From Kiritimatiellia bacterium (GTDB lineage Bacteria; Verrucomicrobiota; Kiritimatiellia; CAIQIC01; JAGNIJ01), in NCBI GenBank assembly GCA_018001225.1, contig JAGNIJ010000006.1, positions 29,188 to 93,187 on the forward strand: DNA of 64,000 bases, read 5' to 3'. Below the pieces are notes generated by a model. That model was not told where the DNA came from, searched no databases, and was given only the letters and a program-made list of their open reading frames with translations. Numbering within the stretch: the stretch's first letter is position 1; every line of letters starts with the position of its first letter. The translations under genes and the position numbers were made by a program. Below, one piece after another: positions 14,533-14,627 of this stretch.

Positions 14533-14627
14533 TTCAACGTCCAACGCACAACGTCCAGCATTCAACTTCCAAGGATTGGAACCTCTCCTGTTGGACGTTG
14601 GAAGTTGGATGTTGGTTGTTGGACGTT
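14533..14627. promoter_or_regulatory. Compound 95-bp imperfect palindrome: three CAACKTCCAA-type decamers, central TTCCAAGGATTGGAA, three inverted TTGGAnGTTG decamers
   Basis: Left arm CAACGTCCAACGCACAACGTCCAGCATTCAACTTCCAA, centre GGA, right arm TTGGAACC...TTGGACGTTGGAAGTTGGATGTTGGTTGTTGGACGTTG. The central 15-mer (14566-14580) matches the TTCCAA-N3-TTGGAA motif of 13296-13373. Low-GC intergenic region between gspK and gspL. Confidence 0.55.

Follow-up and report, generated by a model that had tools for sequence, protein, structure and literature searches.

The REP and BIME elements of Escherichia coli are imperfect palindromes without a U-tract which, as a hairpin at the 3' end of an mRNA, protect the upstream cistrons; these intercistronic palindromes were reportedly described by Higgins, Newbury and co-workers in the 1980s. 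The STRR of cyanobacteria are short tandemly repeated repetitive heptamers, whose name and unit sequences are said to come from the work of Mazel and colleagues in 1990 on Calothrix PCC 7601. According to the summaries of Mrazek et al. 2007 given in two later papers (PMC4679880, PMC4692102), heptamers are the most abundant class of long SSR and a polymerase-slippage hypothesis applies to them. The over-representation of heptamers in bacteria, reported in 2007, still lacks an explanation. Xanthomonas genomes each carry 70-75 convergent pairs of GGGAATC arrays, which vary in length between species and most of which are transcribed (PMC4692102). In Beggiatoaceae, arrays of TAACTGA abut start codons; they are also found in cyanobacteria and Bacteroidetes, and a post-transcriptional role has been proposed for them (MacGregor 2015, PMC4679880). 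A literature search for papers on heptamer repeats in Verrucomicrobia found none.

The element considered here lies between gspK and gspL in a stretch of 64,000 nucleotides (the window) from a bacterium of the Kiritimatiellia, an assignment to which the GspK homologues also point. It belongs to a known class, that of heptamer repeats and their convergent pairs, to which the Kiritimatiellia are added here. Like the GGGAATC repeats of Xanthomonas and the GGGGA(T/C)T repeats of Nostoc (Rehm et al. 2015, PMC4692102), the Kiritimatiellia repeats are intergenic tandem heptamers which occur as convergent, opposite-strand pairs able to form stem-loops, and which vary in length and sequence between close relatives while their location is often kept. 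As in the Xanthomonas pairs, the two arrays have the same unit, on opposite strands and in close proximity. They differ in that the unit lacks a G-tract, in that the host is a member of the Kiritimatiellia (PVC), and in that several unrelated units are found in one genome. The GTTGGAN unit contains no run of three or more G and thus G-quadruplex formation does not apply here.

The resemblance to the cyanobacterial STRR lies in a small vocabulary of 7-nt tandem units dispersed in non-coding DNA, here with at least three units in tandem, an excess of period 7 and polymorphism between relatives. Unlike the STRR, the repeats belong to another phylum and have other unit sequences, and the form of an inverted-pair hairpin is prominent. 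With the TAACTGA repeats they share short arrays of one heptamer at many gene junctions, arrays that often abut start codons, and a unit common to distant phyla; however, the TAACTGA arrays are almost all direct repeats, with one indirect repeat reported (PMC4679880), whereas those described here are inverted. As the inverted arms base-pair with each other, this arrangement would hide the arrays from single-strand-binding proteins. Like REP and BIME elements, the element is an imperfect palindrome without a U-tract in the intercistronic gap of an operon. It is, however, built of tandem heptamers and is not a member of a family of unit-length 35-nt palindromes; in the window, neither a GTAG-type motif nor a RAYT was seen, and there are no multiple identical copies.

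Structure of the gspK-gspL gap

The gsp cluster has the order gspE-F-G-H-I-J-K-L-M-D, and its Pfam assignments are T2SSE, T2SSF, T2SSG, three N_methyl pseudopilins, T2SSJ-like, T2SSK, a PilM/PilN-type gspL, PilO/T2SSM-like and a secretin. gspK ends in a TAG codon at 14454-14456 and gspL starts with an ATG at 14768. The gap between them (14457-14767) is 311 bp long and has a GC content of ~50-57%, compared with 68% in the window. The stem of the hairpin starts 78 nt past the gspK stop codon. A preliminary description of this DNA had placed a compound palindrome in a low-GC, non-coding gap, together with an AGTGAAT array and a TTGAAA-N16-TATTCT sequence, and each of these is present (Table 1).

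Table 1. Coordinates of repeats, palindromes and the promoter-like site in the window (TRF, Tandem Repeats Finder)
Feature	Position	Strand	Context and evidence
GTGAAKA x5 heptamer array	12498..12533	+	spans gspI stop and gspJ start; TRF
Three TTTTCCAAT(G/C)(T/A)TTGGAAAA palindromes	13296..13373	.	between gspJ stop (13284) and gspK ATG (13377)
AGTGAAT x3 heptamer array	14461..14481	+	directly 3' of gspK stop; sequence reading
5' arm, six heptamers: CAACGTC CAACGCA CAACGTC CAGCATT CAACTTC CAAGGAT	14535..14576	+	register analysis, TRF, inverted-repeat search
TTCCAAGGATTGGAA, perfect 6-3-6 palindrome	14567..14581	.	made of innermost heptamer units
3' arm, six heptamers: GTTGGAC GTTGGAA GTTGGAT GTTGGTT GTTGGAC GTTGAGG	14590..14631	+	TRF and register analysis
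Small GC-rich stem-loop CCGGCCC-CTTT-GGGCCGG	14650..14667	+	sequence reading; present in whole-gap fold
ACTGAAC x3 heptamer array (CCTGAAC family)	14675..14697	+	TRF
Conserved block and promoter-like site	14705..14767	+	-35 TTGAAA 14722-14727, -10 TATTCT 14744-14749; promoter scan and alignment
Second inverted heptamer hairpin, GGGTTCA x4 / TGAACCC x4	41937..42005	+	between Iso_dh (leuB-like) gene and asd

The compound palindrome is a genuine, if imperfect, inverted repeat with arms of 39 nt (14534-14572 and 14591-14629) which are 79% complementary; several slipped registers also pair. Tandem Repeats Finder assigns a period of 7 to the 3' arm (14590-14628, 5.6 copies, 84% matches) and of 14/7 to the 5' arm, the units of which are of the complement type of GTTGGAN, and a distance of 13 nt separates the two arms. 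The unit is therefore a heptamer, present six times in each arm as register analysis also indicates, and the three plus three decamers originally proposed have to be replaced; they consist of every second heptamer plus 3 nt. Seven of the nine matches to the TTGGACGTTG-type decamers in the window lie in the hairpin, and there are two one-mismatch matches elsewhere in the 64 kb (2.8 expected in total). Neither a second copy of the hairpin nor one of its flanks was found in the 64-kb window.

The palindrome TTCCAAGGATTGGAA had been taken as the central core of the structure. It is centred at 14574, 7.5 nt away from the centre of the hairpin dyad at ~14581.5, and is thus an off-centre alternative register of the innermost units; the MFE fold has its left half paired with the initial unit of the 3' arm. 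The half-sites that it was said to share with the sites upstream of gspK are indeed common to both: TTCCAA-N3-TTGGAA occurs exactly four times in the 64 kb (at 13296, 13327, 13359 and 14567; 0.05 expected), and a TCCAA/TTGGA core is common to TTCCAAGGATTGGAA and the three other palindromes.

As anticipated, folding predicts a long, imperfect RNA hairpin. The + strand RNA from 14520 to 14640 has a folding energy of -59.3 kcal/mol, compared with -31.0 +/- 3.4 for dinucleotide shuffles (z = -8.4), none of the 200 shuffles folding as well, while the value for the hairpin on the - strand is -43.0 kcal/mol. The 41 stem positions comprise 31 Watson-Crick pairs, five positions which are G.U pairs on the + strand (and in no case on the - strand) and five other mismatches. 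All five transition-type mismatches in the stem are thus G.U pairs on the sense strand and none is on the antisense strand, which accounts for the weaker fold of the latter.

A terminator scan found nothing between 14530 and 14680, and the hairpin stem is followed not by a U-tract but by AGGTCTCATGGCTG; the missing U/T-run and the empty scan do not fit an intrinsic (Rho-independent) terminator. The small GC-rich stem-loop further downstream has no T-run after it either and was not called in the scan. Searches of Rfam 15, at the gathering threshold and at E <= 1, returned only miRNA-precursor models below threshold (scores of 20-25 bits where 63-98 are required), and these are generic hairpin look-alikes.

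Aligning four close relatives reveals conservation over the ~110 nt that precede the gspL ATG. TTGAAA-N16-TATTCT (14722-14749), the hexamers of which match the sigma-70 consensus at nine of 12 positions, was the only sigma-70-like match that the promoter scan returned between 12400 and 15000 (0.1 expected). In the four relatives, CTTGCYTTGAAAC and GCTYTAYTCT show little or no variation, unlike the 11 nt that separate them, and fixed hexamers with a variable spacer are the pattern expected of -35 and -10 elements. This suggests, from sequence conservation, a putative internal promoter upstream of gspL in this clade, separate for gspL-M-D, in keeping with the sigma-70 promoter of the preliminary description. 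The separate control of gspL-M-D put forward there fits this conserved promoter-like site, but nothing in the evidence singles out the attenuator or processing role that had been given to the hairpin; such a role is physically possible. At the gsp locus, therefore, the conserved feature is the block preceding gspL, and the palindrome is not a conserved regulatory site.

Heptamer arrays in relatives and in other phyla

The period-7 arrays of the window (12498, 14461, 14535, 14590, 14675, 41937 and 41978) are all intergenic, and a simple periodicity scan gave seven matches for period 7 and none for periods 8-12. The GTGAAGA/GTGAATA x5 array (12498-12533) contributes the stop codon (TGA) of gspI as well as the start codon (ATG) of gspJ; tandem copies of its unit place stop codons in each of the three frames.

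A separate, short-read assembly of the same strain (99% GspK) matches the hairpin exactly through the 5' arm, the loop and the greater part of the 3' arm. Its contigs (end of L127 and start of L001, SRR26127636) are interrupted within the 3' arm and continue directly beyond it, which implies that inverted heptamer arrays split de Bruijn assemblies and that MAGs will under-report them. The hairpin is absent in L002, L005 and L006, relatives with 87%, 83% and 81% GspK identity, respectively. Absence from orthologous gsp loci in close relatives was the comparative observation named in the preliminary description as counting against the element, and it is what these relatives show. The corresponding gap is 115 bp long in L002, where it contains CCTGAAC x3 and no AGTGAAT, 146 bp in L005, with AGTGAAT x5 and CCTGAAC x3, and 203 bp in L006, with AGTGAAT x4, CCTACAG x3 and CCTGAAC x2. 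The AGTGAAT array after gspK thus has three copies in the window, five in L005, four in L006 and none in L002, while the ACTGAAC array of the window is kept in all three relatives as a CCTGAAC array. As the hairpin is missing while other arrays occupy the same gap, it is a lineage-specific element. It is also absent from about 15-17 further metagenomic loci (26-87% identity), the gaps of which are ~10-250 nt long and unrelated in sequence; one of these loci, L132 (56% identity), has a different inverted heptamer hairpin in its gspK-gspL gap, with GTGTTCA/TGAACAC units.

Other gaps behave in a similar way. The gspI/gspJ array is also found in L006 (195-233) and is absent in L002, whereas CCTGAAC x8 upstream of gspE in L002 (4365-4420) is missing from the window. 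The units found in arrays of relatives include GTGAATA, CCTGAAC, GGTGTCG and CCTACAG. The differences in arrays between close relatives indicate that these gaps are hot-spots of rapid heptamer-array turnover. Where L002 has its CCTGAAC x8 array, the window (around 7840-7900) contains instead a palindrome that is imperfect and AT-rich (7816-7925, AACAAAACACATCACGGCCGTGATGTATTTTGTT).

The gap between leuB and asd contains hairpins at matching positions in three relatives: the window (41937-42005), L147 (2910-2970) and L148 (2907-2980). Their units differ (GGTTCAG, GTGTTCG and GGTGTCA), and the arms remain complementary. In L146 (9960-9985), the same gap has only a 12-bp palindrome, TTCAGGCCTGAA. 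That these hairpins persist while their two arms change in concert could be a sign of selection on structure instead of neutral slippage.

Arrays of GGTGTCG x5-6 and CATTCAC x4 are found within the annotated 5' end of gspK in L005 (217-304) and L006 (1012-1098). In L005, in-frame ATG codons lie upstream at 184 and 208, and the frame stays open from there to the conserved GSALIV region. The annotated gspK start is wrong in these two relatives, or else the arrays are translated and make the N-terminus variable. As CATTCAC is complementary to the GTGAATG arrays after gspK, that gene is bracketed by inverted arrays ~1 kb apart.

The three palindromes between gspJ and gspK, TTTTCCAAT-N-TTGGAAAA, are spaced 31 and 32 bp apart. 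The first and second have the same sequence, as a tandem duplication would produce; the third equals a single copy at the gspJ/gspK junction of L006 (993-1007), and the copy in L005 is degenerate.

When species-representative genomes were scanned for GTTGGANGTTGGANGTTGGA, at least 120 loci matched, whereas we estimate that both strands of 596 Gb would contain ~17 copies of a random 18-mer; the taxonomic spread is a lower bound, and the scan is biased to the one unit searched. The matches listed come from Verrucomicrobiota, Acidobacteriota, Chloroflexota, Bacteroidota, Desulfobacterales, Planctomycetota, cyanobacteria and others, and several of the loci among these matches (L014, L055, L098, L099, L122 and L120) have inverted pairs, TCCAAC then GTTGGA, much like that of the window. 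In ~990 kb of fetched loci, a sample biased towards genomes with GTTGGAN arrays, we counted 408 arrays of period 7, while periods 5, 6 and 8 gave ~35 each; ~247 period-7 arrays are left once the searched unit is removed. The same loci contain 66 inverted pairs of same-unit heptamer arrays no more than 300 nt apart.

In one Candidatus Acidoferrum MAG, a hairpin of the type GGAACA(TCCAACA)n TCCAAT - 19-nt loop - ATTGGA(TGTTGGA)n TGTTCC recurs at dispersed sites, L014 37-137 and L055 2569-2669. The flanks are the same and the loops unrelated, so that the arrangement looks REPIN-like. At L060 5130-5160, in the same MAG, there is a single arm, flanked by ATAGCCA/ATAGCCG heptamer arrays. The TCCAAT...ATTGGA core of the gspJ-gspK palindromes forms the inner boundary of the heptamer hairpins in L014, L055 and L122. 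A strict regular-expression search for the TCCAAT-loop-ATTGGA architecture matched four loci, too few to claim a family.

Probable origin and possible role of the hairpin

The explanation that we favour, and regard as probable though far from certain, is that the element is an STRR-like inverted heptamer repeat, made by slippage and expanded in one lineage, which would act as a REP-like hairpin on read-through RNA and not as an operator. Its structure and 7-nt period, its place in a family of arrays, its restriction to one lineage and the conservation of the promoter sequence are matters of direct observation. The intergenic gaps of this clade of Kiritimatiellia are filled by a population of heptamer arrays, which close relatives have gained, lost, lengthened or shortened. 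Only in the lineage of the window did the array pair between gspK and gspL expand, in a permissive stretch that extends from the gspK stop to the conserved putative gspL promoter. For the remainder, the mode of origin and any effect at the RNA level, we infer the following scheme. Replication slippage may have generated the arrays, with intrastrand template switching keeping the two arms complementary. Transcripts reading through from gspK would then fold into a stem of ~40 bp, which by analogy with REP and BIME elements might serve as a barrier to 3' exonucleases, a pause site or a substrate for RNase III. Such a hairpin would uncouple the gspE-K message from gspL-M-D, the latter being under its own putative promoter. 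On this reading the hairpin does not serve the gsp genes as a sequence-specific operator, nor do they need it, since its absence in relatives means that any effect it has can be done without.

It has to be considered whether the hairpin is instead a selected cis-acting element of the gsp RNA, an attenuator, U-tract-independent terminator or RNase III site that sets the ratio of gspG-K to gspL-M-D. The very stable sense-strand fold (-59.3 kcal/mol), the five-to-none asymmetry of G.U pairs in favour of that strand and the position of the hairpin directly upstream of the conserved putative promoter would all suit such an element, as would the heptamer hairpin that L132 has independently in the same gap and the maintained position of the leuB-asd hairpins. 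However, the three nearest species-level relatives lack it, there is neither a U-tract nor an Rfam family, and comparable hairpins show no general sense-strand bias: among ~22 inverted heptamer hairpins between co-directional genes, with ORF orientation called crudely from ORF length and GC3, the sense strand is the more stable in only about half. The G.U asymmetry is therefore weak evidence for selection at the RNA level, and we regard a selected role of this kind as unlikely. Insertion of a MITE or REPIN-like element is more doubtful again. It would have placed a segment of ~189 bp (14491-14679) into the CCTGAAC array, with the arms as terminal or subterminal inverted repeats. The DNA that the window has in excess of L005 is indeed bounded by TTTTCCTGA and ACACTGAAC, CTGA being present at either junction, and the same-type hairpins of L014 and L055, dispersed in one Acidobacteria genome with GGAACA...TGTTCC flanks and different loops, offer a precedent. 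Yet CTGA belongs to the surrounding heptamer, so that no transposition is needed to explain its apparent duplication; the 189-bp segment does not end in inverted repeats, neither the hairpin nor its flanks recur in the 64 kb, and L006 has a different array (CCTACAG) at the same spot.

The multi-site DNA operator envisaged by the preliminary description fares no better and we consider it very unlikely. Here, a regulator recognising TTCCAA/TTGGAA half-sites would bind both the hairpin and the 13296-13373 palindromes and thereby co-regulate the gspK and gspL blocks. All four TTCCAA-N3-TTGGAA sites of the window (0.05 expected in it) do lie in two gsp gaps, and the position of the gspJ/K palindrome is conserved in L006, though degenerate in L005. 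The half-site is, however, part of the heptamer unit (TCCAAC/GTTGGA), so that the shared match follows from the repeat itself. Moreover, sites 7 bp apart do not keep to the helical phase, the palindrome does not coincide with the centre of the dyad, orthologous loci lack the hairpin and arrays of the unit are found in many phyla in unrelated settings. That the region encodes a small protein of 57 amino acids is barely credible: an ATG-initiated ORF on the + strand (14506-14679) spans the hairpin, but it has no Pfam match, a GC content unlike that of the genes of this genome and no counterpart in relatives, in which the region is absent, and a period of 7 shifts the reading frame with every unit.

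The reading of the element as a slippage-derived heptamer repeat invokes generic polymerase slippage. It is conceivable, if highly improbable, that hairpins with a TCCAA(T/G)...ATTGGA core and outward TCCAACN/NGTTGGA units are a cross-phylum family made or recognised by dedicated machinery, an equivalent of REP as intercistronic punctuation. A nuclease or recombinase, a reverse-transcriptase-like activity or an RNA-binding protein might then take the place of slippage, and the hosts might include Kiritimatiellia, Verrucomicrobiota, Acidobacteriota and others. The leads in this direction are the near-identical architectures in L014/L055 (Acidobacteria), in L122, L064 and L120 (Verrucomicrobiota) and in the window, together with the dispersed same-flank copies of L014/L055 and the position-retained leuB-asd hairpins. 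Whichever process produces the arrays, the clade provides a compact comparative system, in which the same gaps contain different units with co-changing arms, for distinguishing selection on mRNA structure from a by-product of replication.

Further features of the window

Upstream of the putative -35 element, the 14705-14721 block, TGTCWGACTTCTTGCYTT, is invariant in the four relatives and resembles a sigma-54 -24/-12 element with GT replacing GG. It may be an UP element, a site for an activator or a sigma-54 site that has degenerated. A sigma-54 reading of the conserved block was rejected, as TGTCAGACTTCTTGCT has two mismatches to TGGCAY-N5-TTGCW, the -24 GG included.

Perfect matches to the sigma-54 consensus (TGGCAT-N5-TTGCT) are found in two low-GC gaps elsewhere in the window, at 32540-32555 and 37301-37316. 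The gene preceding the latter has a C-terminus that reads KALKISLATLYRKL, which by our reading resembles the HTH end of a sigma-54 activator, and the next gene begins MRRNAGFTLVEIMIVVAIIGLLAAIAIPS, a type IV pilin-like N-terminus. The window also contains a TPP riboswitch at 4994-5101 (RF00059, 62.6 bits), a tRNA-Glu at 40735-40809 and a tRNA-Gly at 47347-47421.
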